DNA from: Comamonadaceae bacterium | GTDB taxonomy: Bacteria; Pseudomonadota; Gammaproteobacteria; Burkholderiales; Burkholderiaceae_C | Direction: 5' to 3' | NCBI GenBank assembly: GCA_027486555.1 | Contig: JAIXOX010000135.1 | Location: 2,802 to 66,801, forward strand | Length of the DNA: 64,000 bases | Shown: piece after piece, positions 744 to 41,879 of the stretch | Position numbering within the stretch: position 1 is the first letter of the stretch | Layout: every line of letters starts with the position of its first letter | Notes under the pieces: model-generated | What the model was told of the DNA's origin: nothing | The model's database searches: none | Seen by the model: only the letters and a program-made list of their open reading frames with translations | Program-made: the position numbers and the translations under genes

Positions 744-769
744 TTATCTCTTTCAATTTGGTTGATGAC

Positions 770-799
770 GGCACACATGGCAGCATTGCCCTGTGTGCC
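770..799. other. Intercistronic stem-loop between the 259-aa gene and the ATPase
   Basis: GGCACACA-t-GGCA-gcat-TGCC-c-TGTGTGCC; no clear U-tract on the minus strand. Confidence 0.5.
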
Positions 800-806
800 A
801 TATTGA

Positions 807-1586: not shown

Positions 1587-1601
1587 TTCATTCTCCTGGA
1601 G

Positions 1602-1674
1602 TCGTCGGCGGTAAGTAACTCACTCACACTTGTTTTGCCGACAAATTGAATTCTGGAAACCTATGCGCCGACGA
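1602..1674. promoter_or_regulatory. Divergent promoter region with inverted repeat
   Basis: TCGTCGGCG (1602-1610) and CGCCGACGA (1666-1674) are exact reverse complements; a third related half-site TGCCGACA lies at 1636-1643. Confidence 0.45.
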
Positions 1675-1685
1675 TCTCGGTCAGG

Positions 1686-2672: not shown

Positions 2673-2675
2673 TAC

Positions 2676-2708
2676 ATTGTGAGCGTCTAAAAATAGGACG
2701 CTCATAAT
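2676..2708 (+). terminator. Probable intrinsic terminator separating the island core from the AT-rich cargo
   Basis: 12-bp stem ATTGTGAGCGTC/GACGCTCATAAT (one G-U pair), 9-nt loop, followed by TTTCTTCTT, starting 4 nt after the stop. Confidence 0.55.
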
Positions 2709-2741
2709 TTCTTCTTACCTGGCAATAAATGAGGAGTTGAG

Positions 2742-3842: not shown

Positions 3843-4012
3843 ATTTAAGTAGGAATTAAAGATTTAAAAAATTACTTGAGGATATTTAATTTCCCCCACT
3901 TTGATGAATCTTAATAAATTAGGCCAACCATCGAAATCGATTTTTACGGATTCTATAGTTGGCCAGTTGAGTGAATTCACGTGAAATAGTTTTACTTAAA
4001 AAAAAATTCTAT

Positions 4013-5446
4013 CTATTCCTGACTCGCAATGAAAAGATTATCTTTGGCTCTTGTGAGTGCGACATAGTTAAGCCTAGCGTCATTTCTCAATAACCAATCA
4101 TCACCTCGACTTAGGTTGACTAGGGCAGCATTAGATACACCCATTCCTTTAGATGTATGTATGGTTTGAACATAAACTTTAGTGTCGGTTGATAAAACAT
4201 CCTGACGGTGACGAAAATGTGGTACATTCATTGCCGCCAATCCACGCGATATTTTTTCACAAGTCGCTCTTGTAGGCGCCATTACAAGCCATTCTTCGTC
4301 TTTTTTACTCTCGATTATTCTCATCAATTCACGTAAAGTTAAAGGGCGAGTTTGCTTTTGAGATTGATTGGTTTTGTCATTGTTATCTAGCAATACTTTG
4401 TTTATAACGCGACCATCATTATTGGAATTTGGATTGTCCGTCCATATCTTTTTCTTTCTTGAATTATAAGAATCAAGATTGATATTGTTATCAACAAATA
4501 ATTTAATATTTTTAGGAATTCTCCATGATATAGATAGCACTTCATCAGGCAGTGTTGTTGGAAATTCATTAAATAATTTTGGCGAAGCACCGAATGACTC
4601 CATAATTGCTTGATCATCGTCCCCACCAAGGATTGTCTCTTTCGCATTAGTTGCTAGTTTTTTTACTACATCCCACTGTAAGGCGCTTAGATCCTGTGCT
4701 TCATCAATAATTAGCAATTCAAACGTTGGTATTTTTTCTTTTGGAAATGTTTCTTTGGCAACTGAGAAGATCACGTCGTTGAAGTCAGCCAAATTATTTT
4801 TTTCTTTGAAATACTCATATTCTTTGTAATATTTTTGAGCAAACTCTTCAACTTCACCATCAAGAATTTTCCTCTTATAATAATTACCAAGGAGCATTTG
4901 GGCATCACTAAATGACTTTCCAAAAAATTCTGGAGAATCTCTTTTCTTATTAAACATGATGCTGTATTCGCTTAGCACTGGATGTATTGGCCTAACGACA
5001 ACACTGGTTGGATCTCCGGCTCGTAACCACTCCTCTCTAGCACCAATATTAAGATCGAATTTCTGTAAATGCTCTTTTTGACATAGTTGCTTTCCCTCTG
5101 TGCCACCCATTCTAGTTGTCAAACTGTGTAGAGTTGAAAAATTAGTGAATCTTGATGTGGGTATTTTTAATTTTTCAGATATTTTGTCTCTTGCCTCATC
5201 GGCAGCAATATTTGTAAAAGCAAAATAACCAATATTTTCCGGCATAATGCCATGATTAATTGCTTCTGTCGCAATTCTCACAAGTTCTGAAGTCTTTCCT
5301 GTTCCTGGTGGACCATATATTCTTCTGCTTGTTTGAAATTCCCAATTAATTCCCAAGGGAAAGTCAGAAGAAAATGTCTTTTCCATTGAATCTTGAAGGT
5401 TCATTTTGTGATTTCTAGTTGGTGTGGCTTTAATGAATATTTTCAA
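4013..5446 (-). CDS. Compact superfamily-1 UvrD/Rep-like helicase lacking most of the 2B domain
   Basis: Motifs I GPPGTGKT, Ia FAFTNIAA, STLHS, DFND, II DEAQD, III GDDDQAI, IV SWR, V TIHTSKG, VI YVALTRAK; TTG start with GGGAG 7 nt upstream; ~32% GC. Confidence 0.9.
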   Translation of the reverse strand: MKIFIKATPTRNHKMNLQDSMEKTFSSDFPLGINWEFQTSRRIYGPPGTGKTSELVRIATEAINHGIMPENIGYFAFTNIAADEARDKISEKLKIPTSRFTNFSTLHSLTTRMGGTEGKQLCQKEHLQKFDLNIGAREEWLRAGDPTSVVVRPIHPVLSEYSIMFNKKRDSPEFFGKSFSDAQMLLGNYYKRKILDGEVEEFAQKYYKEYEYFKEKNNLADFNDVIFSVAKETFPKEKIPTFELLIIDEAQDLSALQWDVVKKLATNAKETILGGDDDQAIMESFGASPKLFNEFPTTLPDEVLSISWRIPKNIKLFVDNNINLDSYNSRKKKIWTDNPNSNNDGRVINKVLLDNNDKTNQSQKQTRPLTLRELMRIIESKKDEEWLVMAPTRATCEKISRGLAAMNVPHFRHRQDVLSTDTKVYVQTIHTSKGMGVSNAALVNLSRGDDWLLRNDARLNYVALTRAKDNLFIASQE

Positions 5447-5524
5447 TTTAATTCTCCCATAAAAGAAGAATTTTCACAATTCAACTGATGCTAGTTTTGG
5501 GCCATTCGGGTGATTTTCGAGTGC

Positions 5525-6724
5525 CTATAGCACTAATTTATTCATAAATTGGGACCAGTCCTCCATCAGCGTCCGGCGCTTCTCTAGGTAGTCTCCACGC
5601 TGATAGGCTGCTTCGGTCTGATCAGCCAGCGAGTGGGCCAGTGATTGTTCGATCACCTCGCGGCTGTGCCCGGTTGTCTCGCCTGCCCAGTCACGGAACG
5701 AAGAGCGGAAGCCATGAACGGTATATTGCTTGAAGCCCAATGTACCCTTTAGATAGTTGCTCATTGCCATGTTCGACAAGGGCTTGCCTTTGCCTCGACT
5801 GTCGAACACCCACGGCGAACCTTCGATTCGATTGATCGATTTCAGAACTTCAATCGCCTGATCTGACAGCGGCACCCTGTGCTCACGACCCTTTTTCATT
5901 CGTTCTTTCGGGATCGTCCAAATCGCCTTGTCAAAGTCGAACTCTTCCCACTTCGCTTCAATCGTCTCGCTGGTTCTGGTCGCTGTCAAAACACACAGGA
6001 GCAAGGCTTTTGCCGACAACACTGGCGTGATACCAATCGTCTGAAATAACGCCGGGATCTGAGCGTACGGCATCGCGGCATGGTGCTTGACTCGCTGACG
6101 CTTGCTGATTGACGGCAGCAAGTGAGCCAACTTGCCTTTCCATATTGCTGGGTTGTCGCCTGTTCTGTGCCCTGACACAACAGCCCAGTCCATGATGCTT
6201 TCAATACGACCTCTGAGCCGTGTTGCCGTCTCGTTCTTTGTTGTCCAGATTGGCTTGAGAATTTCCAGCACCTGCTCAGTCGTTACCTCTGAACATGCCA
6301 AATAACCTATGACCGGATTGGCATAGGTTGTGATCGTGTTCGTCCACTGATCAGCGTGTTTAGCGTTTCGCCAGCCGTGTCGCTTTGTCTCAATGTAAAT
6401 TTGGGCGGCTCGTTGAAAAGTCATGACATCACTGGCAGCGGCAGCCGCCGCCTGAATCTTGCTTCGTTCAACTCGGGGATCACCACCTTGACGAACCAGT
6501 CTGTGGTGTTGAACTGCCGTATCCCTTGCTTCGGCCAGAGAGACATCCCTGAGCGGACCCAGACCAATCGTGTTCTTGCCGCCAGCACCCCAGCGAAAGA
6601 TCCAACTCTTGTTTGGCTGGCTCGGGTCGGGTGAAGTCTGAACCTTGAGGTACAGCCCGCCACCGTCAGCGTGAAGGCCGACCGTCTTAATTGACCTGAT
6701 TGAAAGCGCTGTTAGTTTGCCCAT
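5525..6724 (-). CDS. P4-like tyrosine integrase with N-terminal arm-DNA-binding domain
   Basis: ADGGGLYLKV N-terminus; catalytic residues TATRTSE (R), MK, HGFRSSFRDW (HxxR), SLAH, AAYQR (Y). Confidence 0.95.
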   Translation of the reverse strand: MGKLTALSIRSIKTVGLHADGGGLYLKVQTSPDPSQPNKSWIFRWGAGGKNTIGLGPLRDVSLAEARDTAVQHHRLVRQGGDPRVERSKIQAAAAAASDVMTFQRAAQIYIETKRHGWRNAKHADQWTNTITTYANPVIGYLACSEVTTEQVLEILKPIWTTKNETATRLRGRIESIMDWAVVSGHRTGDNPAIWKGKLAHLLPSISKRQRVKHHAAMPYAQIPALFQTIGITPVLSAKALLLCVLTATRTSETIEAKWEEFDFDKAIWTIPKERMKKGREHRVPLSDQAIEVLKSINRIEGSPWVFDSRGKGKPLSNMAMSNYLKGTLGFKQYTVHGFRSSFRDWAGETTGHSREVIEQSLAHSLADQTEAAYQRGDYLEKRRTLMEDWSQFMNKLVL

Positions 6725-10543: not shown

Positions 10544-10566
10544 AATTGCGCTTTTCCTTTTTGCCA

Positions 10567-11673
10567 ATGTTATTCCATTCCACCCTGCGCAAAGACCTTG
10601 CGCGCAATTTTGGTGCTGCGCTGGTCATTCTGGTGACCATTGTGATGACCATCACTTTGATCCGGACGCTTGGCCAAGCCAGTCGAGGCAGCGTCAACCC
10701 TTCTGACGTGGTGTTGGTCATGAGCCTGAGCGTATTGGGGCAAATGACGACCATTGCCACTTTGAGTTTGTTCATCACCGTGGTTGCCACCTTGTCGCGC
10801 ATGTATGCAGACAGTGAAATGGTGATCTGGTTTTCAAGTGGGCGAGGCCTGGGCAACTTCATTTGGCCCCTTTTCCGATTCACTTGGCCCATTTTGACCA
10901 TGATTGCCATGCTGGCATTGTTCATTTGGCCTTGGAGCAACCAGCAAGTAGAAGACCTCAAGCAACGCTTTGAGAAACGCAATGACGTTGAGCGCATTGC
11001 ACCCGGTCAGTTTCAAGAGTCAGCGGGAGGCAATCGGGTCTTTTTTATCGACAAGGACAGCCCTGGACAACAATGGGGCAACAACGTTTTTGTTTCAAGT
11101 CGTGATGGCAGCACGGAAAGTGTCACCACCGCCACCCAAGGACGCATAGAACGGGTGGGACCTGACCGATTTTTGCTGCTTGAAAAAGGACAGCAATGGT
11201 GGACGAATTTGGTCAGTGGCGAAACCCGTTTGACTCAATTTGAAAAATACCAGTTGCTGATTGACTCTGACGCAGTGGTGGCAGGCGATCGCAGCAACAG
11301 TCGATTGAAGTCCACGCTTGAATTGATGCGGGACTTTACGCCCACTCACCAAGGCGAGCTGTCTTGGCGTCTGGGCTTGAGTCTTGCGGGCATCAATTTG
11401 GTTTTGATCGCTTTGGCCATGTCTGCAGTCAATCCCAGAGCAGGGCGCAGCTACCACCTGGGTTTGGCTTTGTTTGTCTTTATCGCTTACTACAACTTGC
11501 TGAGTGTGGGGCAAAACTGGATTGCAAATGGGCGGGTAGGCTTTGGCTCTTTCATGGTTCAACTGCATGGCGGGATGTTGCTCTTGGCCTGCATATGGCT
11601 GGCTTTGCGGCACATGAATTGGACTTGGCGAAGCTTGTGGCGTCGTGTTGCGCCGACAGGAGGTGCCGCATGA
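10567..11673 (+). CDS. lptF: LPS export ABC transporter permease LptF
   Basis: Divergent from pepA, six-TM pattern, DSEMVIWFSSG, ELSWRLG. Confidence 0.9.
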   Translation: MLFHSTLRKDLARNFGAALVILVTIVMTITLIRTLGQASRGSVNPSDVVLVMSLSVLGQMTTIATLSLFITVVATLSRMYADSEMVIWFSSGRGLGNFIWPLFRFTWPILTMIAMLALFIWPWSNQQVEDLKQRFEKRNDVERIAPGQFQESAGGNRVFFIDKDSPGQQWGNNVFVSSRDGSTESVTTATQGRIERVGPDRFLLLEKGQQWWTNLVSGETRLTQFEKYQLLIDSDAVVAGDRSNSRLKSTLELMRDFTPTHQGELSWRLGLSLAGINLVLIALAMSAVNPRAGRSYHLGLALFVFIAYYNLLSVGQNWIANGRVGFGSFMVQLHGGMLLLACIWLALRHMNWTWRSLWRRVAPTGGAA

Positions 11674-12776
11674 AAACGGTCCGAACTCTGCTGCACGGCG
11701 AAATTTTTCGGGCCGTTTTATTTGTGTTGGCTGGTTTTTTGGCTTTGTTTTTGTTTTTTGACCTGGTTGACGAACTCCAAGCCCTCGACAGGTATGCGTC
11801 TCAAGGCTATCGCATGCAGCATGCCTTGTTGTTCATTGCGCTCAAAACGCCCAACCATCTCTACGAGTTGATGCCCATTTCGGTCTTGATTGGCAGCATT
11901 TTTGTGATGGCCCGGCTGGCGCAAAGTTCTGAGTTCACCATCTTACGAACCGGGGGACTCGAGCCATGGAAGGCACTGAACCTGCTCCTTCAACTTGGTT
12001 TGATTTTTGTAAGTCTGACGTTTCTCTTTGGTGATTACGCGTCACCTTGGGCCGAGCGCCAGGCCCAACACATCAAAACAAAATTTCAGGGCAACTTGAC
12101 AGTCGGCCAGACGGGTGCTTGGCTCAAGGAAAAACAAGATCAACAACAATTTGCGGTCAATGTACGTCGATTTGATGGCATTGCACAGATGCAAGACATT
12201 CGCATTCATGCCTTTAACAGCCAGGGTCGTTTACTCTCGATCACCACAGCAGCAACAGGGGAAATCCTGCCAAACGAATGGCAATTGAAACAAGTTCAAG
12301 AAAAAACACTGCTCAACGAGCCGTCAAATGGACTTGAAAGATACCAAGCCCTGCAGCACGCCCAGTTGACGTGGAAGACCACGATCAGCGCAGACATGGT
12401 GGCAGCGGCCTTACTCAGCCCGGACACCATGAGCACTTGGGATCTGTTCAATTACATGCGGCATTTGACAAGCAACAAGCAAAATGCCCAGCGGTATGAA
12501 ATTGCGTTTTGGCGCAAGGTTTTTTACCCTTTGAGCTGCTTGGTGATGCTGGTCCTCGCCATGCCCTTTGCTTATTTGCACTTTCGCTCTGGACAGATTG
12601 CAGGCCATGTTTTTGGTGGCGTTCTTGCAGGCATCAGCTTCACATTGCTCAACAATGTTTTCGGTCACATTGGGAATTTACAAAATTGGCAACCGTTGCT
12701 CACGTCTGCTGCACCGGCTTTGATTTACAGCGCCATATCTTTGGCTGCTTTTTGGTGGATGGTGTTGAGGCGATGA
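11670..12776 (+). CDS. lptG: LPS export ABC transporter permease LptG
   Basis: ATGA overlap with lptF; LAQSSEFTILRTGG, GAWLKE, FWRKVFYPL. Confidence 0.9.
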   Translation: MKTVRTLLHGEIFRAVLFVLAGFLALFLFFDLVDELQALDRYASQGYRMQHALLFIALKTPNHLYELMPISVLIGSIFVMARLAQSSEFTILRTGGLEPWKALNLLLQLGLIFVSLTFLFGDYASPWAERQAQHIKTKFQGNLTVGQTGAWLKEKQDQQQFAVNVRRFDGIAQMQDIRIHAFNSQGRLLSITTAATGEILPNEWQLKQVQEKTLLNEPSNGLERYQALQHAQLTWKTTISADMVAAALLSPDTMSTWDLFNYMRHLTSNKQNAQRYEIAFWRKVFYPLSCLVMLVLAMPFAYLHFRSGQIAGHVFGGVLAGISFTLLNNVFGHIGNLQNWQPLLTSAAPALIYSAISLAAFWWMVLRR

Positions 12777-16605: not shown

Positions 16606-16632
16606 CTGTCACGGTAATTTCACTGAAATTAC
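16606..16632 (+). promoter_or_regulatory. Operator region of the lipid-modification operon: Pho-box-like repeat plus perfect 9-1-9 palindrome
   Basis: CTGTCAC-N4-ATTTCAC (16606-16623, 11-bp period) overlapping GTAATTTCA-C-TGAAATTAC (16614-16632), ~57 nt before the ATG. Confidence 0.5.
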
Positions 16633-16688
16633 TTCATTTTGAAACGTTAAAAATGTAAAATTTAAGTTTATTTGTAGCCAGTTTATTC

Positions 16689-17552
16689 ATGCATGTAAGC
16701 CCTAAATCCCAGCCTCATGCCCTTAAGGTCTCCACTGCTCAGTGCAACATCGAATTAAGTCAGCTACCAAGGTGGATTTGGTGGGTGGCGTTGGCCATAA
16801 TGGTTTTGGGACTGGGAATTCACCGCAGTGATCTCAACATGGCGTGGATGCTTTGGGCCCACACCCAAGCGTTTTTTCCAGATTTCTTTTGGGCCAGCAC
16901 CACTCTTTTGGGATTTGGTTGGGCTGTGCTCATTGTGGTCACGGTCTTTGACCGCGAACACGGACGATGGGCCGTTGCCGCTTTATTGACTGTGGTTTTT
17001 GGTGGTTTGTTTGTTGCGTTTGTCAAACGGGTTGCGTACCACCCAAGACCACTTTCCTGGCTCAACGATTCCAATTTGCAAGTGATTGGCGAGCCAATTC
17101 TTCACAGCGGTTCCATGCCATCAGGTCATGCAGCGGGCGCTGCAGCGTTGATCACTTTGTTGGCGCTGGCGCTGCGCGAGCGGGGTCAATTGGACAAGAC
17201 GCGTTTGTACATTTTGGTGTTGTCGGGTTTTTTGGTGGCCTGGTCTCGTGTGGCTGTTGGCGCACACTGGCCTGCTGACGTGATGGTTGGTGCACCTTTG
17301 GGCATGGCATTGGCGGTGGGTGCTTACCGGCTTGTGCATGTTTGGATGCCTCACCCACCCGTGTTGTCTTTGGCCCATGACAAGCACCGCAGGTGGTGGC
17401 TTTGCACATTGGAGTTGGCCTTGGCCGCCATTTGTTTCGGTACCGACACTGGACAACCGCAGGCCGTTTGGTTTCAAGGTTTTTTGGGATCGATGGCCAT
17501 CGTGAGTTGCTTGGTGCGTTTGCGTCCTGTCATGAAACTGGCTTTCAAATGA
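16689..17552 (+). CDS. PAP2-family membrane phosphatase (LpxE-like or polyprenyl-PP phosphatase)
   Basis: C1 KRVAYHPRP, C2 PSGH, C3 SRVAVGAHWPAD; multiple TM helices. Confidence 0.85.
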   Translation: MHVSPKSQPHALKVSTAQCNIELSQLPRWIWWVALAIMVLGLGIHRSDLNMAWMLWAHTQAFFPDFFWASTTLLGFGWAVLIVVTVFDREHGRWAVAALLTVVFGGLFVAFVKRVAYHPRPLSWLNDSNLQVIGEPILHSGSMPSGHAAGAAALITLLALALRERGQLDKTRLYILVLSGFLVAWSRVAVGAHWPADVMVGAPLGMALAVGAYRLVHVWMPHPPVLSLAHDKHRRWWLCTLELALAAICFGTDTGQPQAVWFQGFLGSMAIVSCLVRLRPVMKLAFK

Positions 17553-18565
17553 ATACGGTCGCTTCCAAAGTTCGTGCACATGTGGGCTGGGCGGCCTCTT
17601 TGCTTTTGGGCTTGGTGCTGTTGATATGGCTGTTGAAAGCGGTGGATTGGAGCTTGGTTTGGGAACGCAGCCAATCGGTGAGTGCATCGGCGTGGTGTGT
17701 GGGTGTGTGCGGCCTGATGCTCAGCCATGTGTTGCGGGCGGGTCGGATACGAAACGAATGGTCACAACGCTTGGACATGCGTTGGCACGAGGCTTGGGGC
17801 TTGCTGGTGACACACAGTGCCTGGGTGGTTTTGGTTCCCATGCGGGCGGGTGAGGCGGTTTATGTTTGGGCTTTGCACAAACGTGGTCATGTCAGTCTTC
17901 TTGAGGCCACCCTGAGCCTTGTGAAAATGAGGCTTCAGGACATGGGCATCTTGCTTTGTTTTGCTGTATTTTTCTGGCTGCCCTTGGTTTTGGCATGGCG
18001 CAGTTTGCTGACTGTCTTTATGCTCTTCGTGGTTTTGCCGTGGGTGTTTCCATGGGTTTGGAAAATGGCGTACCAAAGGCTGGCTGGAAAAGTCTTGAAG
18101 CAGGATGCCTCACATGCACAGCCGCAAAACACTCGCTCACAAGTCAACCCACCCAAGCTGGTGGCCCCTGTACAAGTCAATTGGACTTCTTGGTTTTACG
18201 CCGTCTCTAACTGGGCCGTAAAACTGCTGGCCATTGCTTGGCCCTTGTCGGAATTGGGTGGCTTGGATATGCGTTATGCATTGGCTGGCGCTTTGGGTGG
18301 TGAGTGGGGCGCTGCCATGCCGCTCCAGCCGCCGGCTGGTTTCGGTCCCTACGAAGCCGGTGCTTGGGCTGGTGCAACGTGGGCCCATCATTCGGATTCT
18401 TTGACCCATCCTCTGGATTTTGCCCCTTTGCCTTTGCCTTTGCATTTGCCAGCTGCCTTTTTGGTGGTGCATTTGATGGCGTTGGCTGTCACCATCATTT
18501 CGGCCCTTGCGGCCCGTCTTTTGGGCTGGACTGAGCAGCCTTTTTCAGGGATCCATCCAGCATGA
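17549..18565 (+). CDS. Lysylphosphatidylglycerol-synthase-TM / UPF0104 flippase-like membrane protein
   Basis: Multi-TM; LRAGRIR, PMRAGE, QPPAGFGPYEAG; ATGA overlaps on both sides. Confidence 0.75.
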   Translation: MNTVASKVRAHVGWAASLLLGLVLLIWLLKAVDWSLVWERSQSVSASAWCVGVCGLMLSHVLRAGRIRNEWSQRLDMRWHEAWGLLVTHSAWVVLVPMRAGEAVYVWALHKRGHVSLLEATLSLVKMRLQDMGILLCFAVFFWLPLVLAWRSLLTVFMLFVVLPWVFPWVWKMAYQRLAGKVLKQDASHAQPQNTRSQVNPPKLVAPVQVNWTSWFYAVSNWAVKLLAIAWPLSELGGLDMRYALAGALGGEWGAAMPLQPPAGFGPYEAGAWAGATWAHHSDSLTHPLDFAPLPLPLHLPAAFLVVHLMALAVTIISALAARLLGWTEQPFSGIHPA

Positions 18566-19575
18566 GTTTTCAAGAAGCATTGACGCTCGCGTCTGCTCCC
18601 CGTTTGTCGGTCGTCATTCCCATGTTCAATGAGGTGGAAAGCGCAGTCCCCATGTTGGACAGTGTGCAATCGGCCTTGACCTCGTGTGGCATGCCGTGGG
18701 AATTGATTGTGGTGGATGATGGCAGCACCGATGGCACAGCCAAGATTTTGAGAGCCCATGCAGCCAAGCTGGGCCCACACATTCGCATCATTGCCCTTCG
18801 GCGCAACTTTCGCCAGACGGCGGCCATGCAGGCGGGGATTGACTACGCCCGAGGCGATGTGATTGCAACGCTGGATGGTGATTTGCAAAACGACCCGGCC
18901 GACATTCCTCGATTGGCCCAACGTCTTTGGGCCGAGGACTTGGACTTGGTGGCCGGCTGGCGGGTGCAACGACAAGATGGTTGGTTGTTGCGAAAACTCC
19001 CCTCTTTTTTGGCCAACCGTTTGATCGCGCGGGTCACGGGCCTGAAATTTCAAGACTTGGGTTGCAGTTTGAAAGTTTTCCGCGCACCGGTTTTGAAAGA
19101 AATTCGGCTTTATGGAGAAATGCACAGGTTCATTCCTGCTTGGTTGTCCACCGTCACGTCCCCTGACCGCATGGCCGAAGAACCTGTCAAGCACCAAGCG
19201 CGGCAATTTGGTCAGTCCAAATACGGTCTGTCTCGCACACTGCGGGTTTTGACGGACCTTTTGGCCATCCATTTCTTTTTGCGTTTTGGCTCCAGGCCAG
19301 GGCATTTTTTTGGGGGAATCGGTCTGCTTTTAGGTGCCATGGGCAGCTTGGTATTGGCCTATTTGTTGGCCTTGAAATTCAACGGCGAGTCGGTGGGCGG
19401 ACGGCCATTGCTCTGGATGGGGTTTTTCTGCGTGATTGCCGGGCTGCAGTTTTTGACCACCGGGGTCTTGGCTGAGATCTTGGCGCGTATTTATTTCGAT
19501 GGCAACCACGCACGCGCCTACCATGTGCTGCCCCATGCTTTGGTGCTCAGTCCGGATGAGGCTTGGCATGGCTGA
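18562..19575 (+). CDS. GT2 polyprenyl-phosphate glycosyltransferase (ArnC/RgtE-like)
   Basis: SVVIPMFNE, DDGSTDGT, RRNFRQTAA, DGDLQNDP, GEMHRFIP, two C-terminal TM helices. Confidence 0.92.
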   Translation: MSFQEALTLASAPRLSVVIPMFNEVESAVPMLDSVQSALTSCGMPWELIVVDDGSTDGTAKILRAHAAKLGPHIRIIALRRNFRQTAAMQAGIDYARGDVIATLDGDLQNDPADIPRLAQRLWAEDLDLVAGWRVQRQDGWLLRKLPSFLANRLIARVTGLKFQDLGCSLKVFRAPVLKEIRLYGEMHRFIPAWLSTVTSPDRMAEEPVKHQARQFGQSKYGLSRTLRVLTDLLAIHFFLRFGSRPGHFFGGIGLLLGAMGSLVLAYLLALKFNGESVGGRPLLWMGFFCVIAGLQFLTTGVLAEILARIYFDGNHARAYHVLPHALVLSPDEAWHG

Positions 19576-21157
19576 ACCAGGCTTGCGCACGGCTTCGGCT
19601 GAGCGACTGTGGTGGGCCCTCGGGTTCTTGGCCATCGCTTTGTTGTTGATGGGGCGATTGGGCGCTTATCCTCTTTTTGATGTAGACGAAGGAGCGTTTG
19701 CCGAGGCCTCGCGAGAAATGCTTGAAAGTGGCGATTGGTGGCACACCACGCTCAATGGTGCCGACCGCTTTGACAAACCCATTTTGGTGTATTGGCTTCA
19801 AGCGTTTGCCATGCACCTGTTTGGCGTGAACGAATGGGCCGTCAGGTTTCCCTCTGCGCTGTGTGCTGCACTCTCTTTGTTTGGACTGGTTTGGCATGCT
19901 CGTCGCTTATGGCCAGAGGCGTCGGGCGAACGGGGCTGTTTGGCCGCTGGTTTGCTGGGCACCAGTGCAGGCTTTTTGTTGATTTCAAGAGCCGCCACGG
20001 CTGACGCATTGCTCAATGCCTTGTTGCTGCTGGGCGGCTTGCGTTTGGTTTTGTTTGCCACCCAAGGCCATTTGCGGGATTTGCGGTGGTCTGTGCTGTG
20101 GTTCGGTTTGGGTGTACTGGCCAAAGGCCCTGTTGCGCTGTTCATTCCCGGAGTCACTTTGTTGCTCTGGTCGCTGTCGTCGGACCGGGGTCGTCGCTTT
20201 CGCCAAGCCTTGGTCGATGGGCCCAGTTGGATCCTTTTAGGGCTCATTTGTCTGCCCTGGTACCTGTACGCCTGGCAGCGCCACGGTGACGCGTTCATCG
20301 ATGGTTTTTTCTTGAGGCACAACCTTGAGCGCTTCAGTGGGCCATTGGAGGGCCACGGTGGCAGCTTGCTCTATTACGTGGTGGTTTTGCCTTTGTTGTG
20401 GTTGCCCTGGTCGGCCTTGCTTTTGCCCATGGTTTGGCGGGTGCGGCAATTTTGGGCAGACAGCACCGATCGATTTTTACTCATTTGGGCCGTTTTTGTG
20501 GTGGTGTTTTTCTCGCTGTCTGGCACCAAATTGCCGCACTATGTCTTGTATGCCGGCATGCCCATCGCACTGCTCCTGGCGCGAGTGATGCTGACCGATC
20601 ACGGTGGCCGAGGGCTGAAGTTGGGTTTGTTGTCAGGCATGTTGATCACACCTGTTTTGTGGCTTGGCATGATTGGCGCGGTGCCCTACGTGGCGCAGCA
20701 AATGGACAACGGACCTGTTCAACAACTTCTGAGCACAGCCCCCGAAACTTCTGAGGTGTTGGCTTGGGCCGTCTTGGCGCTGGTGCTTACCGTCTTGAGC
20801 CTTTTTGCCCCCTCGAGGCTTGGCCCCAAACGCTGGTTTTTGCCAGCGGGCGTGGCTGCTGTTTTTTTGGCATGGGTCGTTGTTCCTTGGTGGGGTGAGA
20901 CTTTGCAAGGTCCAGTCAAGGCAGCAGGGCTTTGGGCCCGATCGCAGGGCTTGGCGCATGCCACCCAATGGGGCTTGCACCAGCCCAGTGTTGGTTTTTA
21001 CCGGCAAAGCGAAACGCCGCGCCAAGCGCCTCAAGTCGGGCATTGGGCGCTTGTTCAAACCATGCCCCAGGATGGTCAGACTTTTGTGATCGGTTTTGAG
21101 TCCAGAGGTCTGCGTTGGGTCAGTCCTGTTGCACCCCAAGCCGTAGTTGCCCCCTGA
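19568..21157 (+). CDS. ArnT/RgtA-D-like GT-C lipid glycosyltransferase
   Basis: FDVDEGAFAEASREM, RFDKPILVYW, VRFPSA, LAKGPV, KLPHY; ~13 TM segments. Confidence 0.9.
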   Translation: MAEPGLRTASAERLWWALGFLAIALLLMGRLGAYPLFDVDEGAFAEASREMLESGDWWHTTLNGADRFDKPILVYWLQAFAMHLFGVNEWAVRFPSALCAALSLFGLVWHARRLWPEASGERGCLAAGLLGTSAGFLLISRAATADALLNALLLLGGLRLVLFATQGHLRDLRWSVLWFGLGVLAKGPVALFIPGVTLLLWSLSSDRGRRFRQALVDGPSWILLGLICLPWYLYAWQRHGDAFIDGFFLRHNLERFSGPLEGHGGSLLYYVVVLPLLWLPWSALLLPMVWRVRQFWADSTDRFLLIWAVFVVVFFSLSGTKLPHYVLYAGMPIALLLARVMLTDHGGRGLKLGLLSGMLITPVLWLGMIGAVPYVAQQMDNGPVQQLLSTAPETSEVLAWAVLALVLTVLSLFAPSRLGPKRWFLPAGVAAVFLAWVVVPWWGETLQGPVKAAGLWARSQGLAHATQWGLHQPSVGFYRQSETPRQAPQVGHWALVQTMPQDGQTFVIGFESRGLRWVSPVAPQAVVAP

Positions 21158-21284
21158 GATGAACATGTTCAACCTGCACGCACCAGGCGGCCGTTGCAGC
21201 TGCGTTTTCAGGGATTGGCCACCCCTGAACACGGTGGTTTGAGATGGAACTTTGGCGGCTCACACCCCTGACCGATGGACACTT

Positions 21285-22061
21285 ATGAAAACAATTGAGC
21301 AAGAGCGCATGCTGTTGATGGTTTTGTGGGCGCTTTTGATTGCGCTTTTTGGCTTGTGGCCAGAGCTTGATTTGCATTTCACGGGTCTCTTTTATTCTCC
21401 CGAGGCGGGATTCACTGCGCGGAAATTGGAGTGGGTTGTCGCGTTTGACAGCGCGGTGCCATGGGCTGGTCGAGCGCTGCTGCTGGGCGCTTTGACAGGG
21501 ATTGTCTGGTCTTGGTGGCAGGGGCGCATGCGCCACGCTGCGCTGGACAACATCCGTTCGTACGCCCTGCCAACCAATTCTCGCCACACATGGCGTTGGA
21601 GTGCTGCTTTGATGCTGACTTTGATGCTGGGCTTGGGCGCCGTGGTGCACAGCGTCTTCAAAGACAATTGGGGCCGTTCAAGGCCTGAGGCTGTGCAGGC
21701 GTTTGGCGGCCCAGTGCAATTCACGGGACCATTGGTGCCCACCAACAGCTGTCAACGCAATTGTTCATTTGTCAGCGGCCACGCCGGGACAGGCTTTGCC
21801 CTCATGGCGGTGGGCATTCTGGGTTCGAAGGTTCGCCGCAGACGGTGGTTGCTTGTGGGAGCCGCCTGCGGTCTGACCATTGGGATGGTGAGGATCATTT
21901 TTGGCAAGCATTTCTTGAGCGACATCTTGTTTTGCTGGGCCATGATGTGGACGGTTGTCATGCTTGTTCGCTGGGCGTGGTTGGGCTTGACCCTCCTGCA
22001 GATGCGCCGCAAGCGCGCGCTCAATCTCAATAAGTCGCAACTTGACGGGGCCTCTCCATGA
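21285..22061 (+). CDS. Second PAP2 phosphatase, LpxF (lipid A 4'-phosphatase)-like
   Basis: KDNWGRSRP, CQRNCSFVSGHA, RIIFGKHFLSD. Confidence 0.8.
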   Translation: MKTIEQERMLLMVLWALLIALFGLWPELDLHFTGLFYSPEAGFTARKLEWVVAFDSAVPWAGRALLLGALTGIVWSWWQGRMRHAALDNIRSYALPTNSRHTWRWSAALMLTLMLGLGAVVHSVFKDNWGRSRPEAVQAFGGPVQFTGPLVPTNSCQRNCSFVSGHAGTGFALMAVGILGSKVRRRRWLLVGAACGLTIGMVRIIFGKHFLSDILFCWAMMWTVVMLVRWAWLGLTLLQMRRKRALNLNKSQLDGASP

Positions 22062-23071
22062 ACATCTTGGTCACCGGAGCCGCAGGCTTCATTGGCATGC
22101 ACACCAGCGAGCGCTTGTTGCAACAAGGCCACCATGTGCTGGGACTTGACAGTTTCAGTCCTTATTACGACGTGGGCCTCAAACGTGACCGTGCATCGCT
22201 CTTGCTCCAGCACCCAAACTTTCAATTGTTAGAAGCCGACATCAACCGCCCCGATGTGCTGGCGGCTATAGAAAAGACCATGAAGCCCCAGCGTGTTGTG
22301 CATTTGGCCGCGCAGGTTGGGGTCAGGCACTCGATTCTTCAGCCCATGGATTACGCCAGTGCCAATTTGACGGGTTTCTTGCAGGTCTTGGAGTGGTCCC
22401 GCCGCTGGCGGGTGGAGCATCTTGTTTACGCCAGCAGTTCCAGCGTTTATGGCGGTAACCGCATTGTCCCATTTGCCGAGTCGCACCCGGTGGACCACCC
22501 GATCTCACTTTATGCGGCCACCAAAAAATCCAATGAGTTGATGGCGCATTCCTACAGCCATTTGTACGGTTTGCCTACAACAGGTTTGCGTTTTTTCACG
22601 GTTTACGGACCCTGGGGAAGGCCCGACATGGCGGCTTGGGGCTTCACTCGCGCCATCGCAGCTGGAGAGCCCATCGAAGTGTTCAACCATGGCCGCATGG
22701 TTCGTGATTTCACCTATGTCGATGATGTGGTGGACAGTGTGTTGGCCGTCTTGTACCGACCCGCAGAACCCATCGAAACCGGCTCGACGGCCACAGGCCC
22801 TGACACCAGTACCGCGCCTTACAGGATCTTCAACGTGGGCAATGCCAACCCTGTTCAACTCGATGTGTTCATCCAGGCCATTGAGCAGGCGCTCGGCAAG
22901 TCTGCGATTCGAATCAACCGTGAGATTCAAGCGGGAGATGTCGAGGTCACGGCCGCTGAAACCAGCTCACTCCAGGCTTGGACGGGCCAGTCTCCCGGCA
23001 CTGATTTGCATGTGGGTGTGAAGCGGTTTGTGGACTGGTACATACAGCGTTATGGCGTGCAAAATATGTAA
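22058..23071 (+). CDS. UDP-glucuronate 4-epimerase (makes UDP-galacturonate)
   Basis: GAAGFIG, HLAAQVGVR, YASSSSVYG, YAATK, LRFFTVYGPWGRPDMA; ATGA overlap with the upstream gene. Confidence 0.88.
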   Translation: MNILVTGAAGFIGMHTSERLLQQGHHVLGLDSFSPYYDVGLKRDRASLLLQHPNFQLLEADINRPDVLAAIEKTMKPQRVVHLAAQVGVRHSILQPMDYASANLTGFLQVLEWSRRWRVEHLVYASSSSVYGGNRIVPFAESHPVDHPISLYAATKKSNELMAHSYSHLYGLPTTGLRFFTVYGPWGRPDMAAWGFTRAIAAGEPIEVFNHGRMVRDFTYVDDVVDSVLAVLYRPAEPIETGSTATGPDTSTAPYRIFNVGNANPVQLDVFIQAIEQALGKSAIRINREIQAGDVEVTAAETSSLQAWTGQSPGTDLHVGVKRFVDWYIQRYGVQNM

Positions 23072-23210
23072 CCAACACCTTAGAAACATCTCACTTTCCC
23101 TTTTTAAAGCGTCCTGACCATCTTTTGAAATGGTGCGCCCAAGCTGGATGCAAGCCGTTTTAACCTCTGTGAACTTGGCCTCGTGGGACTTCAAACAAAG
23201 ATCGGTCTCG

Positions 23211-23648
23211 ATGCACCATGGCCCACATCTCGAGGTTCGATACCTCCCCTGGCCTTTAAGGCCTTTGACCATCACCTTGTTTGTTTTGAGCTTGCTGATA
23301 CCCAGCGCTTTTGCCCAGCGCATGTACGACAGCAGTGGTCGTGCGTTGGGACGGGTGGATGAAAAACGTTTTTACAACGGATCAGGCCAACTGATGGGCC
23401 GAGTGGACGGCGGGCGTATTTATGACACCTCAGGACGGCAACTGGGCCGCATCGATGGGAATCGGGTGTACAACGCCACGGGCAGCCCAATCGGGCGCAT
23501 CGATGGTGAGCGGCTTTACAGCGCTTCGGGCACGCTCATGGGGCGCATCGATGGTGAGCGGCTGTACGATCCATCAGGCCGAACCATTGGCCGCGCCGAT
23601 GCGCTTGGGCGGACGCAAATGATCGTGTTTTTTTATTTCTTCTTGTGA
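23211..23648 (+). CDS. Secreted beta-repeat protein (6 x 16-aa repeats; 5-fold beta-flower-like); start uncertain
   Basis: Signal peptide ending AFA-Q; repeats RxY[DNS]xSGxxxGR[VI]DGx; an exact 23-nt DNA repeat at 48-nt spacing (23493 and 23541). Confidence 0.75.
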
Positions 23649-23658: not shown

Positions 23659-24198
23659 ATGACTGTTCGTGAAATCCTCAAAATGGGCGATACGCGTTTG
23701 CTGCGCGTGGCCGAGTCCGTGACCACATTCGACACCCGTGAGCTGCATGCGTTGATCGTCGACATGCAAGACACCATGGCCAGCGTCAATGGCGCAGGCT
23801 TGGCCGCGCCGCAAATTGCTGTGAACCTGCAGGTGGTGATTTTTGGCAGCTCAAGCGTGAACCCGCGCTACCCTGGCCGTCCGTTGGTGCCGCGCACGGT
23901 GCTGATCAACCCGGTGATCATGCCACTGGATGCTGCAGAAGAAGAGGATTGGGAAGGTTGCTTGTCGGTGCCCGGCTTGCGTGGTGTGGTGCCTCGCTGG
24001 TCGCGCATTCGCTACACAGGGTTTGACCAACAAGGCACGCCCATTGACCGCACAGTTGATGGTTTTCATGCGCGGGTGGTGCAGCATGAATGCGACCACC
24101 TGATCGGCAAGCTTTATCCCATGCGGGTGCGTGACTTCAGCCGCTTTGGCTTCACCGAGGTGCTTTTTCCGGAGATCAGCGCGGCTGAAGACGATTGA
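23659..24198 (+). CDS. def: Peptide deformylase
   Basis: [19 protein letters not shown]. Confidence 0.95.
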
Positions 24199-26340: not shown

Positions 26341-27387
26341 TCAAGAAAACAAGCGACGCGCTTGTGCCGATCCTGCCGACAATTCACGGGCATTGAGCGC
26401 CTCGTAAAGAACGAGCAAGTCACTGGCAATTTGGTCAAGCGCCACATCGTTCAGAACCTGCCCATCACCGTCGGTGATCAACCCTTCCATGTTGTCGGCC
26501 AGCGAGCAGGCCACTTCACGCATGCGTTCAAAAGGAAGGTTTTCAACGGCAATTTGCGGAACATCCAGGCTCAGTGTGAATTCACGGATGGCCGACAAAG
26601 CCTGGTCTTCGGCCATTGCGGCCTGCGTGTCAAAACTCAGTGACAACAAGGGGAGTCCTGCTTGTTCAGAAGGCAGCACCATGCGCCCCGGGATAAGGCC
26701 CATGACAAAGCCCAAGCGTGCTGCATGTTGCTGGATGTATCCCGAACTCCAAGCCGCCGACCGTGCACAAAGCGTAAAGCTCAGTTGCACGTCGTGTGCA
26801 CTGGCGAATTGATCCAGTTCGCGAGCGCGGGCCACCTCCTCCATCATGTCGCTGAAATGGGCAGTCCCTCCGATGGCGTCCGCAAAGGCTTGGGTTTTAA
26901 CCACAAACTCAGAAAATTCAATGTCGTTGAGTGCGCCGACCCGATTGGCCAACTGCACACCGGCTTGAAAAGCCACATAGCGTTTGCCAAGCTCTACAGG
27001 CTCCCATGGCCCCTGAAGCTGACAACATCCCTCGATGTGAAAGGCTTTGGTGCCCACCCGACGCGTGGGCGGTAAGGCAGCCAATACAGATTGGGCGGGC
27101 ACGGCTTGCTCCACTTCAATGCTCGAGATCACATCGATCAAGGCATCCAAATGCGGTTTTTTATCAACCGGTGACAAAGCGACAAAATCATCGTTCAAGA
27201 CAGGCTCAATCGCCTGGCTGCTGGCAAATGAAGCGGCAGGATGCAGTCCCGTCGGCTCAGTTTGGGGTTCGGCTTGTTTGGGGGCTTTTTGACGCGAAGT
27301 CCAATAGTTGTAGGCCACAACAGCCACCACCGTCAGCCCCCCAATGGCGGCCAAACTCACTTGCAAAGAACTCAAAGAATCCGCCAT
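26341..27387 (-). CDS. zipA: ZipA-like cell division protein (FtsZ-binding C-terminal domain)
   Basis: N-terminal TM, QLANRVGALNDIEFSEF, ARELDQFA, LDVPQ; position between smc and ligA. Confidence 0.8.
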   Translation of the reverse strand: MADSLSSLQVSLAAIGGLTVVAVVAYNYWTSRQKAPKQAEPQTEPTGLHPAASFASSQAIEPVLNDDFVALSPVDKKPHLDALIDVISSIEVEQAVPAQSVLAALPPTRRVGTKAFHIEGCCQLQGPWEPVELGKRYVAFQAGVQLANRVGALNDIEFSEFVVKTQAFADAIGGTAHFSDMMEEVARARELDQFASAHDVQLSFTLCARSAAWSSGYIQQHAARLGFVMGLIPGRMVLPSEQAGLPLLSLSFDTQAAMAEDQALSAIREFTLSLDVPQIAVENLPFERMREVACSLADNMEGLITDGDGQVLNDVALDQIASDLLVLYEALNARELSAGSAQARRLFS

Positions 27388-27394
27388 AACTTCC

Positions 27395-30300
27395 TCAGGC
27401 CACGTCGGCCAATGACGCTGCAGACTCCATGTCCACAGCCACAATGCGGGAAACACCCTGCTCTTGCATGGTCACGCCAATCAACTGCTCGGCCATTTCC
27501 ATGGCGATTTTGTTGTGGCTGATGAACAAAAACTGGGTCTCTTTGCCCATGCCCTTGACCAACTTGGCGTAGCGTTCAGTGTTGGCATCGTCCAGCGGTG
27601 CGTCCACCTCATCGAGCAAACAAAAAGGTGCCGGGTTGAGCTGAAAAATCGCAAACACCAAAGCAATCGCAGTCAGGGCCTTTTCGCCGCCCGACAGCAA
27701 ATGAATGGTTTGGTTCTTTTTACCGGGTGGCTGCGCCAGCACTTGTACACCCGCATCCAAAATCTCATCACCCGTCATGACCAAGCGGGCATTGCCGCCG
27801 CCAAATAATTCGGGAAACATCCGACTGAAGTGCTCGTTGACAATCTTGAAAGTGCCGCCCAGCAAATCCCGGGTTTCCGCATCGATTTTCCGGATCGCAT
27901 CTTCCAGCGTGTTCATCGCATCGGTCAAGTCGGTGCATTGCGAATCCAGGAAAACCTTGCGCTCGCGCGAGGTCGTCAATTCGTCCAGCGCTGCCAAATT
28001 GACAGGACCCAAAGCCATGATTTCCCGGTGAATGCGGTCGATTTCACCCTGCAGTCCGGTCAAGCGCACCGCGCTGTCTTCGATGGACTGGGCGACAGCT
28101 TGAAGATCCGCTTGGGCGTCGGCCAACAATTGGGTGTACTGCTCAAACCCCAAGCGGGCTGCTTGCTCCTTGAGTTGCAGGTCACTGATGCGTTGGCGCA
28201 GGGGATCGAGTTCCCGCTCAAAACTGCCTTTGCGATCATCACTGGCCCGCAATTTGGCCGTCAAATCATCGTAAGCGCTGCGGCAAGCACCCAAAGCTTG
28301 CTCTCGCTCCAATTTGATGGCAAGGACGTTTTGCAGCCCTGCTTGGGCGGCCGCATCGGTCAATCGGCTGAGTTCATCGCGGGCGCGTTGCGTTTCGGCT
28401 TCAATGCCGACGACTTGCTGTTGTGCGGTGTCGATGGTGCGCTTGAGTTCTGCACGCCGAGCGTCCAGGCTGCGCTGGGAAAACTGGGCTTCCTGAGCGC
28501 GACGCTCCAAACTGCGTTGTTGCTCGCGGCACTCGGAGAGTTTGCGCTCGGACGCCATCACCCGTTCGTCCAACTGGGCATGGCGCTCTTGGGTATCTGC
28601 CAACTGCATGTCAAGTTCTTCAAAGCGCGCCTCAGCTGTGACACGCCGCTCCTGCAACTCATCGAGCAAAGCCTCCACCTCGGCCAAATCGTTGTTGATT
28701 TGTTCACCGCGGGCACGGGTTTGGGCCACCATCTGCGAAAGACGCAGGGTTTCAACTTGCAGTTCGTGTGCGCGCGACTGGTTTTCACTGGCTTCGCGAC
28801 GCACCGTGATCAAGCGTTGGGACGCATCGGCATAGGCCGCCTCCGCACGCACCAAAGCGCTGCGACTTTCCTCTGAAATCAGGGTTTGGGCCCGAAGTTG
28901 CTTTTCGAGGTTGTCAATTTCCTGAGCACGCCCGAGCAAACCTGCTTGCTCGGAATCTTGGGCATAAAACACCACACTGTGGCTGTCCACAGCATGACCG
29001 GCCTGCACATACAAAGTCTCGCCCGCGCTCAGCTCATTGCGCCAGGCCATGGCGTCGTCCATCTTTGGCGCCGTCAAGCAACCGTGTAGCCAGTCCGTCA
29101 ACAAGGCGGACAAGCCCGCATCGTGCACTCGCAAAAAATCGGCCAAAGGCTTGCAACCGGCGGGCAGACCGGTGCGTGGTGCGGCTTTGCAAGCCAAAGG
29201 TGAAGTGAAAAAGGTCAGCTTGGCAGGCGGCGCGTCCAGCGCAAAAGCCCGCACCAGCTCCAGTCGAGAGACCTCGAGCGCAGACAAACGTTCACGCAAT
29301 GCCGATTCAAGCGCATTTTCCCAGCCCGGCTCAATCTGGATGCGACTCCACAGGCCCTCCAGCCTGTCCATACCATGCTTGGACAACCAAGGCTTGAGCT
29401 TGCCATCGGTGCGCACTTTTTCTTGCAGGGCCTTGAGGGCATCCATGCGCGCACGCAAATCGGCCAAGGTGGCCGTCTCTTGGTTAACAGCCGCTTGACG
29501 CAGCCGGCGATCTTCGTCGAGCGCGGGCACAAGTTCCTGCAATTCGTGCAAGCGCGCCTCGGACTCTTGTGTCAAGGCTTCAGCCTCGGCCGCTTGTTCT
29601 TGCAAATGCTTCAATCGGGCTTCATCGGGTGCGGTCAGTGCATTGCGGTCCGTCAACAGGCGCTCCCGGCGCTGATCGAGTTGACGCGATTGCTCTTGAA
29701 TGTTGCGCTGGTCAGCGGCCAACACGCCAATTTGCTGCTGCACATGAACCACTGAGGCCCGTTGGGCCGTGGCGTCGTTTTGGGCTTTGCGTAGCGCTTC
29801 CTCAAGATCGGGCAAAGCCATGGCCTGGTCTTCGACCTGCGCTGCCAACGTCATGCTGTGGTCTTCGGCCATGGCCGTTTGCTCGGCAAATGTTTCGAGC
29901 TCGGTTTGTGCGTCCAAGCGGCGTGTGCCCCATTGCGTGGTTTGTTCCAGCAGTTGGTGCAACCGCTGTTCTGCACGTTGTCGGCCCTCAACCACATAAC
30001 GAATTTCGGCCTCTAGGCGACCGACCTCGGCGCTGGCCTCGTACAAAGCGCCCTGCGCTTGGTTGACTTGGTCACCCGCTGCGTAATGGGCTTGGCGGAT
30101 TGTCTCCAAATCGGCCTCGACACCGCGCAAATCGGCCATGCGTGACTCCAAAGCATTCACCGCCTGGTCCACATCGGCTTTGGTGCGAACTTGGTCAGCC
30201 TCGGCGTCGCGGCGTTTTAAAAACCACAGCTGATGCTGTTTCAAGGTGCTGTCAGCCTGCAAGCGGTTGTACCGATGGGCCACTTCGGCTTGCCTTTCCA

Positions 30301-37147: not shown

Positions 37148-37223
37148 TGGTGGGACCAGCGGGGGTCGAACCCACGACAAACGGATTAAAAGTCCGCTGC
37201 TCTACCAACTGAGCTATGGTCCC
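37148..37223 (-). tRNA. tRNA-Lys (anticodon UUU)
   Basis: 76-nt GGGACCATAGCTCAGTTGGTAGAGCAGCGGACTTTTAATCCGTTTGTCGTGGGTTCGACCCCCGCTGGTCCCACCA; encoded CCA. Confidence 0.97.
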
Positions 37224-40503: not shown

Positions 40504-40532
40504 ATTTCACCTTTTAATAACAATTTACAACA

Positions 40533-41822: not shown

Positions 41823-41879
41823 ATACGTCTCTGTGCAGAAGTGACCAATGAAGCGCTGATCGTACACCGCCACATGGGT

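Follow-up and report, generated by a model that had tools for sequence, protein, structure and literature searches.

Organization of the operon

We describe here a six-gene operon in a 64,000-nucleotide stretch of contig JAIXOX010000135.1, from an uncultured Burkholderiales bacterium of freshwater type that is catalogued under Comamonadaceae. This whole 64 kb stretch is referred to as the window, and the operon occupies positions 16689-23071 on its plus strand. The genes, designated g1 to g6 (Table 1), code for a PAP2 phosphatase, a flippase-like membrane protein, a family 2 glycosyltransferase (GT2), an ArnT-like glycosyltransferase of the GT-C class, a second PAP2 phosphatase and a UDP-glucuronic acid (UDP-GlcA) 4-epimerase. 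An earlier note on this DNA had listed the same six products and proposed that they exchange the phosphates of lipid A for galacturonic acid (GalA); all six open reading frames (ORFs) are intact, lie on the plus strand and have the domains that it named. It had also counted four start/stop overlaps, which we read directly at the junctions as three ATGA overlaps (g1/g2, g2/g3 and g5/g6) and one of 8 bp (g3/g4); between g4 and g5 there is a gap of 127 bp. The start of g5 at 21285 was also chosen by an independent gene caller, and terminator-like matches in the region are no more frequent than expected by chance.

Residues that define the enzyme classes are conserved throughout. Both PAP2 proteins retain the K-x6-RP, (P/V)SGH and (S/V)R-x5-H-x3-D motifs, g3 has the GT2 motifs DDGSTD and DGD, and the GxxGxxG, SSS and YxxxK motifs of the short-chain dehydrogenase/reductase (SDR) family are intact in g6. 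The same operon is found on three independent metagenome contigs (L001-L003; L-numbers denote comparison loci from other genomes or metagenomes, and P-numbers related proteins) and is therefore not an assembly artefact.

Table 1. Features of the operon and its promoter region.
Feature	Coordinates	Strand	Evidence
Pho-box-like direct repeats, 11-bp phase	16607-16645	+	TGTCAC 16607, TTTCAC 16618, TTACTT 16629, TGAAAC 16640
Candidate -10 hexamer TAAAAT	16656-16661	+	10 bp past the fourth repeat, read from sequence
g1 (PAP2a), LpxE-like membrane phosphatase	16689-17552	+	Pfam PAP2, 2.5e-20
g2, MprF-flippase-domain-like membrane protein	17549-18565	+	Pfam LPG_synthase_TM (PF03706), 4.1e-10
g3, GT2 of the polyprenyl-phosphate type (ArnC/GtrB/RgtE)	18562-19575	+	Pfam Glycos_transf_2, 1.1e-34
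g4 (GT-C1), ArnT-like (GT83-type) GT-C	19568-21157	+	Pfam PMT_2, 1.3e-20
GT-C2 relic, 127 bp	21158-21284	+	Alignment with L004
g5 (PAP2b), LpxF-like membrane phosphatase	21285-22061	+	Pfam PAP2, 6.7e-17
g6, UDP-glucuronate 4-epimerase, extended SDR	22058-23071	+	Pfam SDR epimerase, 1e-53

Conservation of the cluster and loss of a second transferase

A pattern scan of one genome per species recovered relatives of g4 in at least 552 genome stretches, nearly all of them from Burkholderiales or Rhodocyclales-like betaproteobacteria; the carriers include Limnohabitans, Rhodoferax, Polaromonas, Malikia granosa, Pseudacidovorax intermedius, Sphaerotilus mobilis, Ideonella azotifigens, Ramlibacter, Azoarcus and Uliginosibacterium. 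In most cases the g4 relative is part of this cluster. Among cultured carriers, M. granosa P1 has the full cluster, P. intermedius DSM 21352 and I. azotifigens JCM 15503 have a single GT-C, and S. mobilis DSM 10617 is a further example. Neighbors were counted at the 43 loci where the g4-type gene (GT-C1) is flanked by 4.5 kb or more on each side. A GT2 gene is nearby in 37 of these (58-71% identity), a g1-type PAP2a in 35 and a flippase-like gene in 32, and g5-type PAP2b and g6-type epimerase genes are each present in 25. An intact second GT-C gene (GT-C2), located between GT-C1 and PAP2b, is seen in 20 loci, and ugd in seven. The fullest gene order is ugd-PAP2a-flippase-GT2-GTC1-GTC2-PAP2b-epimerase (L007, L009, L013, L015 and L022), and these full clusters contain exactly two PAP2s and two GT-Cs; six loci have a bare pair of PAP2a and GT-C1. 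These comparisons are best explained if the operon is a pared-down form of a modular cluster for envelope remodelling, one with a wide distribution in Burkholderiales.

Natural gene fusions link some of the components. Three proteins of 757-823 residues from other metagenomes or genomes (P0053, P0102 and P0119) have a PAP2a domain N-terminal to GT-C1, which indicates that GT-C1 and the LpxE-like phosphatase share a substrate, and in P0226 (570 residues) PAP2a is fused to the flippase-like protein. Three further proteins (P0095, P0109 and P0116) have 170-260 extra N-terminal residues ahead of GT-C1.

GT-C2 and g4 are paralogs that have diverged very far. BLAST detects no similarity between the two, and hhalign aligns them with 98% probability over the N-terminal ~270 columns; a GT-C2 profile found no match in PDB or NCBIfam, so that its kinship to ArnT rests on Pfam PMT_2 and the hhalign match to GT-C1. 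Within the window, GT-C2 is represented by nothing other than the 127-bp segment between g4 and g5. The nearest relative, L004, in which the GT-C is 90% identical to g4, has in this interval a 270-residue, internally deleted GT-C2 ORF whose C-terminus corresponds to GT-C2 residues 397-515. When the window and L004 are aligned, both ends of this ORF are shared and the window has a clean deletion of ~670 bp, showing the g4-g5 spacer to be the remnant of a lost second transferase. GT-C1 is followed directly by PAP2b in many other lineages as well. The earlier note had called the operon apparently complete and self-contained, which we do not uphold: the fuller relatives add ugd and a second GT-C, and because the window lacks the one and has only a relic of the other the operon is a reduced one, in which a single transferase must serve two phosphatases.

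The phosphatases

The two PAP2 proteins resemble different lipid A phosphatases. The best PDB match of g1 is Aquifex LpxE (6ebu; 2.7e-9), and a profile built from g1 orthologs (the PAP2a family) matches Aquifex aeolicus LpxE at 6e-23 over residues 8-172 of 180; the next PAP2 structure is ten orders of magnitude weaker (1e-12), and the profile has no match to LpxF. By profile similarity, PAP2a would thus group with LpxE, the lipid A 1-phosphatase. The best NCBIfam match of g5 is LpxF (NF045633; 4.8e-26, 92 bits against a cutoff of 400), followed by PAP2_lipid_A, and its ortholog in L007 aligns with model positions 10-214 of 217 (3.1e-35; 122 bits, also far under the cutoff of 400); the PAP2b family profile has no match to LpxE. 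The two PAP2s therefore discriminate reciprocally, and we regard g1 as a putative lipid A 1-phosphatase and g5 as a putative lipid A 4'-phosphatase.

The transferases and the flippase-like protein

Gene 3 has the architecture and motifs of the ArnC/GtrB type over its full length, from which the donor sugar cannot be read, and aligns end to end with ArnC (NF007986; 1.8e-52), at 178 bits under an equivalog cutoff of 529. The best NCBIfam match of g4 is ArnT (9e-44; 150 bits, under a cutoff of 567), and its sole PDB sequence match is the Cupriavidus enzyme CmArnT (5ezm; 1e-24), which covers residues 14-453 with the DEG and (E/D)KP motifs aligned; there is a weak match to archaeal Agl23. A tblastn search of plasmids with g4 returned only ArnT-like genes from Cupriavidus, Ralstonia and enterobacteria at 29-35% identity, and an exact-sequence look-up of g4 gave no match; one of the epimerase did. 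We consider g4 to be a putative GalA transferase to dephosphorylated lipid A.

The g2 product scores 40 bits against Pfam PF03706, above the gathering score of 33.4. An AlphaFold2 model computed with 45 homologs (pLDDT 90.5, pTM 0.87) was compared with PDB using Foldseek, and only six structures, all of MprF, were found with E-values below 0.01 (probability 1.0, TMq 0.41-0.50). The PF03706 score and the MprF-like transmembrane fold together place g2 in the MprF flippase-domain family, and as it is without the aminoacyl-phosphatidylglycerol synthase domain it is, as modelled, a stand-alone MprF-type flippase domain. Its position in the cluster makes it a candidate flippase for a polyprenyl-phosphate-sugar.

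Sugar supply

The epimerase g6 matches PDB entry 5u4q from Klebsiella pneumoniae over its full length (3.9e-113, ~58% identity), an entry labelled by its depositors as a dTDP-glucose 4,6-dehydratase. Alignment with the UDP-GlcA epimerase UGAepi of B. cereus (6zl6) shows conservation of T126/S127/S128 (as SSS), Y149, K153, T178 and R185; Arg185 binds the carboxylate of UDP-GalA, and its loss makes the enzyme a decarboxylase (PMC12338863). Members of the 90% cluster of g6 are named UDP-glucuronate 4-epimerase by JGI. These features point to g6 as the UDP-GlcA 4-epimerase of an Rgt/Lpx-type pathway.

The only sugar-nucleotide enzymes seen in any version of the cluster are this epimerase and the ugd product, which in the fuller clusters scores 670 bits against E. 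coli-type Ugd. As the earlier note had observed, genes for ArnA, ArnB and ArnD are absent; we found none like them in the operon or in the related clusters, g6 itself scoring just 37 bits against ArnA, and the clusters compared contain no Arn-, Lgm- or Flm-type aminotransferase, formyltransferase or deacetylase.

The promoter region and a possible link to phosphate

Upstream of g1 there are four direct repeats in an 11-bp phase, of which TGTCAC and TTTCAC form a strong pair (16607-16623) and the third and fourth are weaker copies in the same phase; the TAAAAT hexamer is also in phase with the site. We took a Pho box to consist of at least two TGTCA-type 7-mers in 11-bp phase in place of the -35 hexamer. 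The site scores 11/12 against the two-half-site Pho consensus, which 0.43% of random 200-bp windows also do, and the pattern T[GT]TCA[CT]-N5-T[GT]TCA[CT] occurs only here on both strands of the window. A scan of the promoter region with the sigma-70 consensus found no -35/-10 pair, which fits an activator-dependent promoter, and transcription is probably from a promoter of the PhoB type. In L004 the repeat block is kept in an improved form (TGTCAC/TTTCAC/TTTCAC) despite an otherwise unrelated spacer and a different upstream gene, def instead of a hydrolase gene. The def gene is directly upstream of the operon in L004 (1-226) and downstream of it in the window (23659-24198), and so the operon, together with a promoter block of ~85 bp, has changed its place or its orientation relative to def.

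In several relatives the cluster lies among genes for phosphate metabolism. Six loci (L055, L060, L064, L069, L071 and L073) have the order alkaline phosphatase (phoA), lptG, epimerase, cluster, ppk, sixA, ppx, and then pstS-pstC or phoR-phoB, and the pstS promoter in these genomes carries a similar repeat; L018 and L079 have ppk and ppx within 6 kb. Altogether, pho loci surround the cluster in at least three lineages. Among 59 cluster promoters, seven reach 11/12, compared with the 0.43% of random windows. The Pho-box-like site and the pho synteny lend independent, if circumstantial, support to the phosphorus-sparing role that the earlier note had inferred; the window itself contains no pho genes.

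A proposed pathway and its alternatives

We lean towards an Rgt/Lpx-like pathway in which phosphates are stripped off lipid A and GalA takes their place, here in a reduced, single-transferase form that is probably phosphate-regulated. A Ugd encoded elsewhere in the genome would make UDP-GlcA, which g6 would epimerize to UDP-GalA. On the cytoplasmic side of the membrane the g3 product would join GalA to undecaprenyl phosphate, and g2 would move undecaprenyl-phosphate-GalA to the periplasmic face. There the LpxE-like g1 would take off the 1-phosphate of lipid A and g4 would put GalA on position 1, and the LpxF-like g5 would remove the 4'-phosphate. As GT-C2 has decayed, the 4' position probably stays unsubstituted, and we predict a lipid A that is free of phosphate and carries one GalA. 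If the promoter is of the PhoB type, a shortage of phosphate would switch the remodelling on. The scheme parallels that of Rhizobium, in which position 1 is the site of LpxE and the GalA transferase RgtF, and 4' that of LpxF and the GalA transferase RgtD (PMC9393093).

Several observations weigh against this pathway or parts of it. The equivalog cutoffs of ArnC, ArnT and LpxF are all missed widely, so the specificities rest on context. The gene set, and its retention as one block in hundreds of Burkholderiales, do fit the swap of phosphate for GalA put forward in the earlier note, but the acceptor (lipid A, core or other) and the sugar are what we infer. Position 1 is the probable site of g4 action based only on the fusion or adjacency of GT-C1 to an LpxE-like PAP2, and by analogy with ArnT one GT-C could serve both positions. 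LpxE of Aquifex is multifunctional, with activity on lipid A, undecaprenyl pyrophosphate (C55-PP) and phosphatidylglycerol phosphate (PMC6581854), and likeness to it therefore leaves the substrate of g1 unfixed. No ugd is present in the window, nor are phoB/R, pstS/C, ppk or ppx. The seven promoters scoring 11/12 come from two lineages only and were noticed post hoc, and many loci have plain -10-like boxes and no Pho-box-like site. Finally, the lipid A of Sphaerotilus natans, from a genus whose species carry the cluster, is reported to be phosphorylated (Masoud 1991, as cited in PMC10179214), reflecting either conditional expression or a different target.

Regulation is the part of the scheme with the closest competitor. 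A pathway with the chemistry proposed above that is constitutive, or under another OmpR-family regulator, and that serves outer-membrane stability, metal binding or evasion of phages and predators, has a substantial chance of being right, if somewhat below even. Direct repeats with 11-bp spacing are bound by many regulators of the OmpR family, GalA-containing lipid A is constitutive in Rhizobium, Caulobacter and Aquifex, and the loci with plain -10-like boxes agree with such a role. The repeat nevertheless fits the TGTCA(C/T) Pho half-site, has been kept with the operon in L004 and resembles that of the pstS promoter in related genomes, and clusters are located in pho loci in at least three lineages.

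The remaining alternatives concern the target and the sugar. In Rhizobium, GalA is added to the lipopolysaccharide (LPS) core from the same lipid donor by ArnT-like enzymes (Brown 2012, as cited in PMC9393093). An acceptor cannot be read from sequence, and g4 might likewise add GalA to Kdo or another core sugar, as RgtA/B/C do, with the PAP2s independently trimming lipid A phosphates or recycling C55-PP, a substrate of Aquifex LpxE (PMC6581854). We think this rather unlikely, as the repeated fusion or adjacency of PAP2a and GT-C1 is hard to explain unless the phosphatase prepares the acceptor of the transferase, and exactly two PAP2s accompany two GT-Cs in full clusters. Less credible still is a target outside LPS, in which case g4 would glycosylate a protein of the periplasm or outer membrane, a different glycolipid or a glycan, and phospholipids or C55-PP would be the substrates of the PAP2s. 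Protein mannosyltransferases are among the members of the broad PMT_2 family, g4 has its weak resemblance to Agl23, and glycolipid-type GT4 and LplT genes neighbor the cluster in several loci; against this, the two PAP2 families have their best specific matches in LpxE and LpxF, ArnT is the closest characterized relative of g4, and lptFG lie beside the cluster in several loci. We give the least credence to a cationic modification of the Arn, Lgm or Flm type, in which aminoarabinose (Ara4N), glucosamine (GlcN) or galactosamine (GalN) would be attached to lipid A phosphates as a defense against cationic peptides, although among curated models g3 and g4 match ArnC and ArnT best, CmArnT is the one sequence match of g4 in PDB, and Bordetella, in the same order, has the lgm system for GlcN. 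The scores are far under the equivalog cutoffs (178 against 529 and 150 against 567), ArnA/B/D or a deacetylase are missing from the cluster and its relatives, the sugar-nucleotide enzymes are confined to Ugd and an epimerase with an intact carboxylate-binding arginine, and two phosphatases would strip the very groups that Arn-type enzymes decorate.

Relationship to known systems

Exchange of lipid A phosphate for GalA by this cluster would employ the same enzyme classes and logic as the GalA pathway of Rhizobium leguminosarum and Mesorhizobium (LpxE, LpxF, RgtE, RgtD, RgtF and the epimerase LpsL), i.e. PAP2s for the 1- and 4'-phosphates, a GT2 for polyprenyl-phosphate-GalA and periplasmic ArnT-like GT-Cs. 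The parts are dispersed in Rhizobium but form one overlapping operon in Burkholderiales, with the addition of an MprF-type flippase-like gene; the window further differs in its single GT-C (the second being a relic) and its Pho-box-like promoter. We know of no defined flippase for the Rhizobium GalA pathway. Phosphate-free lipid A with GalA in Aquifex and Caulobacter is the same type of end product as predicted here, and Aquifex LpxE is the protein to which PAP2a is most similar, but those lipids have GalA at both positions and are constitutive, in contrast to the single GalA predicted for the operon. Caulobacter apparently uses CtpA rather than LpxF (PMC9393093).

The Arn pathway of Enterobacteria, Burkholderia and Cupriavidus shares homologs of g3 and g4 (ArnC and ArnT) and the use of a lipid-linked donor, flipping and periplasmic transfer. 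The operon differs in that it has phosphatases and a supply of uronate through a 4-epimerase rather than the aminoarabinose route, and it contains neither ArnE/F nor the set of ArnA, ArnB and ArnD with equivalog-level ArnC and ArnT by which an Arn pathway is recognized. The Flm/LpxE/LpxF system of Francisella and the Lgm system of Bordetella likewise combine lipid A phosphatases with a GT2 and an ArnT-like transferase, and in Francisella the 4' position is dephosphorylated and unsubstituted, as is predicted for the product of the operon; these systems add GalN or GlcN and require a deacetylase (NaxD or LgmC), which the operon lacks. With Pho-regulated, phosphorus-sparing lipid remodelling (PlcP/Agt glycolipids and ornithine lipids) the cluster shares a putative PhoB-dependent promoter and pho synteny. 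As in glucuronosyl-diacylglycerol, an anionic uronate would stand in for an anionic phosphate, but the target would be lipid A and not the glycerophospholipids.

The earlier note knew of no characterization of such a system in Comamonadaceae, and this agrees with the open-access literature, in which we found no GalA lipid A system described in Comamonadaceae or Burkholderiales, and no Pho-regulated dephosphorylation or glycosylation of lipid A; a Desulfovibrio paper shared with the subject nothing beyond 'lipid analyses'. Most likely, then, the chemistry is of a known kind, and its occurrence in this clade had not been described.

Other features of the window and of related loci

The operon is flanked by chromosomal housekeeping genes: pepA, lptF, lptG, cbiX, a LysR regulator, an aminotransferase and a hydrolase upstream, and a beta-flower protein, def, ligA and smc downstream. 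The lptF and lptG genes (~10546-12776) are 4 kb upstream of the operon, and lptF/lptG adjoin the cluster in seven of the comparison loci. The lipid A flippase gene msbA (41944-43773; TIGR02203, 654 bits against a cutoff of 602) is located beside tolB and cpoB/ybgF (39167-43773), such that the window holds several LPS transport genes (msbA, lptF and lptG) together with the operon. The secreted 5-fold beta-flower protein (23130-23648; Pfam Bflower_2, 5e-31) is encoded 59 bp 3' of g6; it was considered as a seventh member of the operon and rejected, as it is not syntenic with the cluster at any other locus.

At the left end of the window (30-6724), genes for a tyrosine integrase (5525-6724, minus strand), a UvrD-like helicase (4013-5446, minus strand) and an AAA ATPase (30-743, minus strand) are accompanied by three further ORFs without a Pfam match. 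This region may be an integrated element or a defense island; there is no tRNA gene adjacent to it, the only one in the window being for tRNA-Lys (37148-37223). ORFs of 371, 259, 328 and 366 codons (26341-27456 on the minus strand for the first, the others within 807-3842) have no Pfam match at 1e-4/1e-5, and the 371-residue ORF lies between ligA and smc, a place where zipA is often found.

A GT4 gene and one for the lysophospholipid transporter LplT (489 bits, with a cutoff of 297) are repeatedly found beside the cluster, in L018 (705-3899), L027, L052, L056 and L074. The best matches of the GT4 are GlcNAc-PG synthase and monoglucosyl-diacylglycerol synthase, both under cutoff, and in L018 a triple Pho-box-like repeat, TGTCATgccggTGTCACcgaaaTTTCAT, is present 5' of it; the GT4 may be a phosphate-starvation glycolipid synthase. 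Some records of metagenome-assembled genomes with the cluster (L017, L026, L028, L044 and L072) are titled Chitinophaga pinensis, Rickettsia typhi, Bordetella parapertussis or Chlorobiaceae, and are probably mislabelled bins.

Implications

The phosphates of lipid A are usually regarded as a cost in phosphorus that does not vary, and as what anchors the divalent-cation bridges of the outer membrane. We put forward as a tentative, and on balance doubtful, generalization that many freshwater and soil Burkholderiales (at least 552 stretches) use a PhoB-controlled, conditional exchange of lipid A phosphate for GalA, a phosphorus-sparing remodelling of LPS that would involve a new MprF-type flippase for undecaprenyl-phosphate-GalA and in which lineage-specific loss of GT-C2 would lead to a phosphate-free lipid A with one GalA. 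If true, phosphorus-sparing lipid remodelling would extend to LPS, including that of the abundant freshwater bacterioplankton Limnohabitans, Rhodoferax and Polaromonas. The cluster would also give a genetic handle on poorly defined enzymes, namely a flippase for lipid-linked GalA and transferases specific for the 1 and 4' positions, and environmental Burkholderiales would be predicted to have lipid A species with altered endotoxicity and altered interactions with polymyxin or phages.

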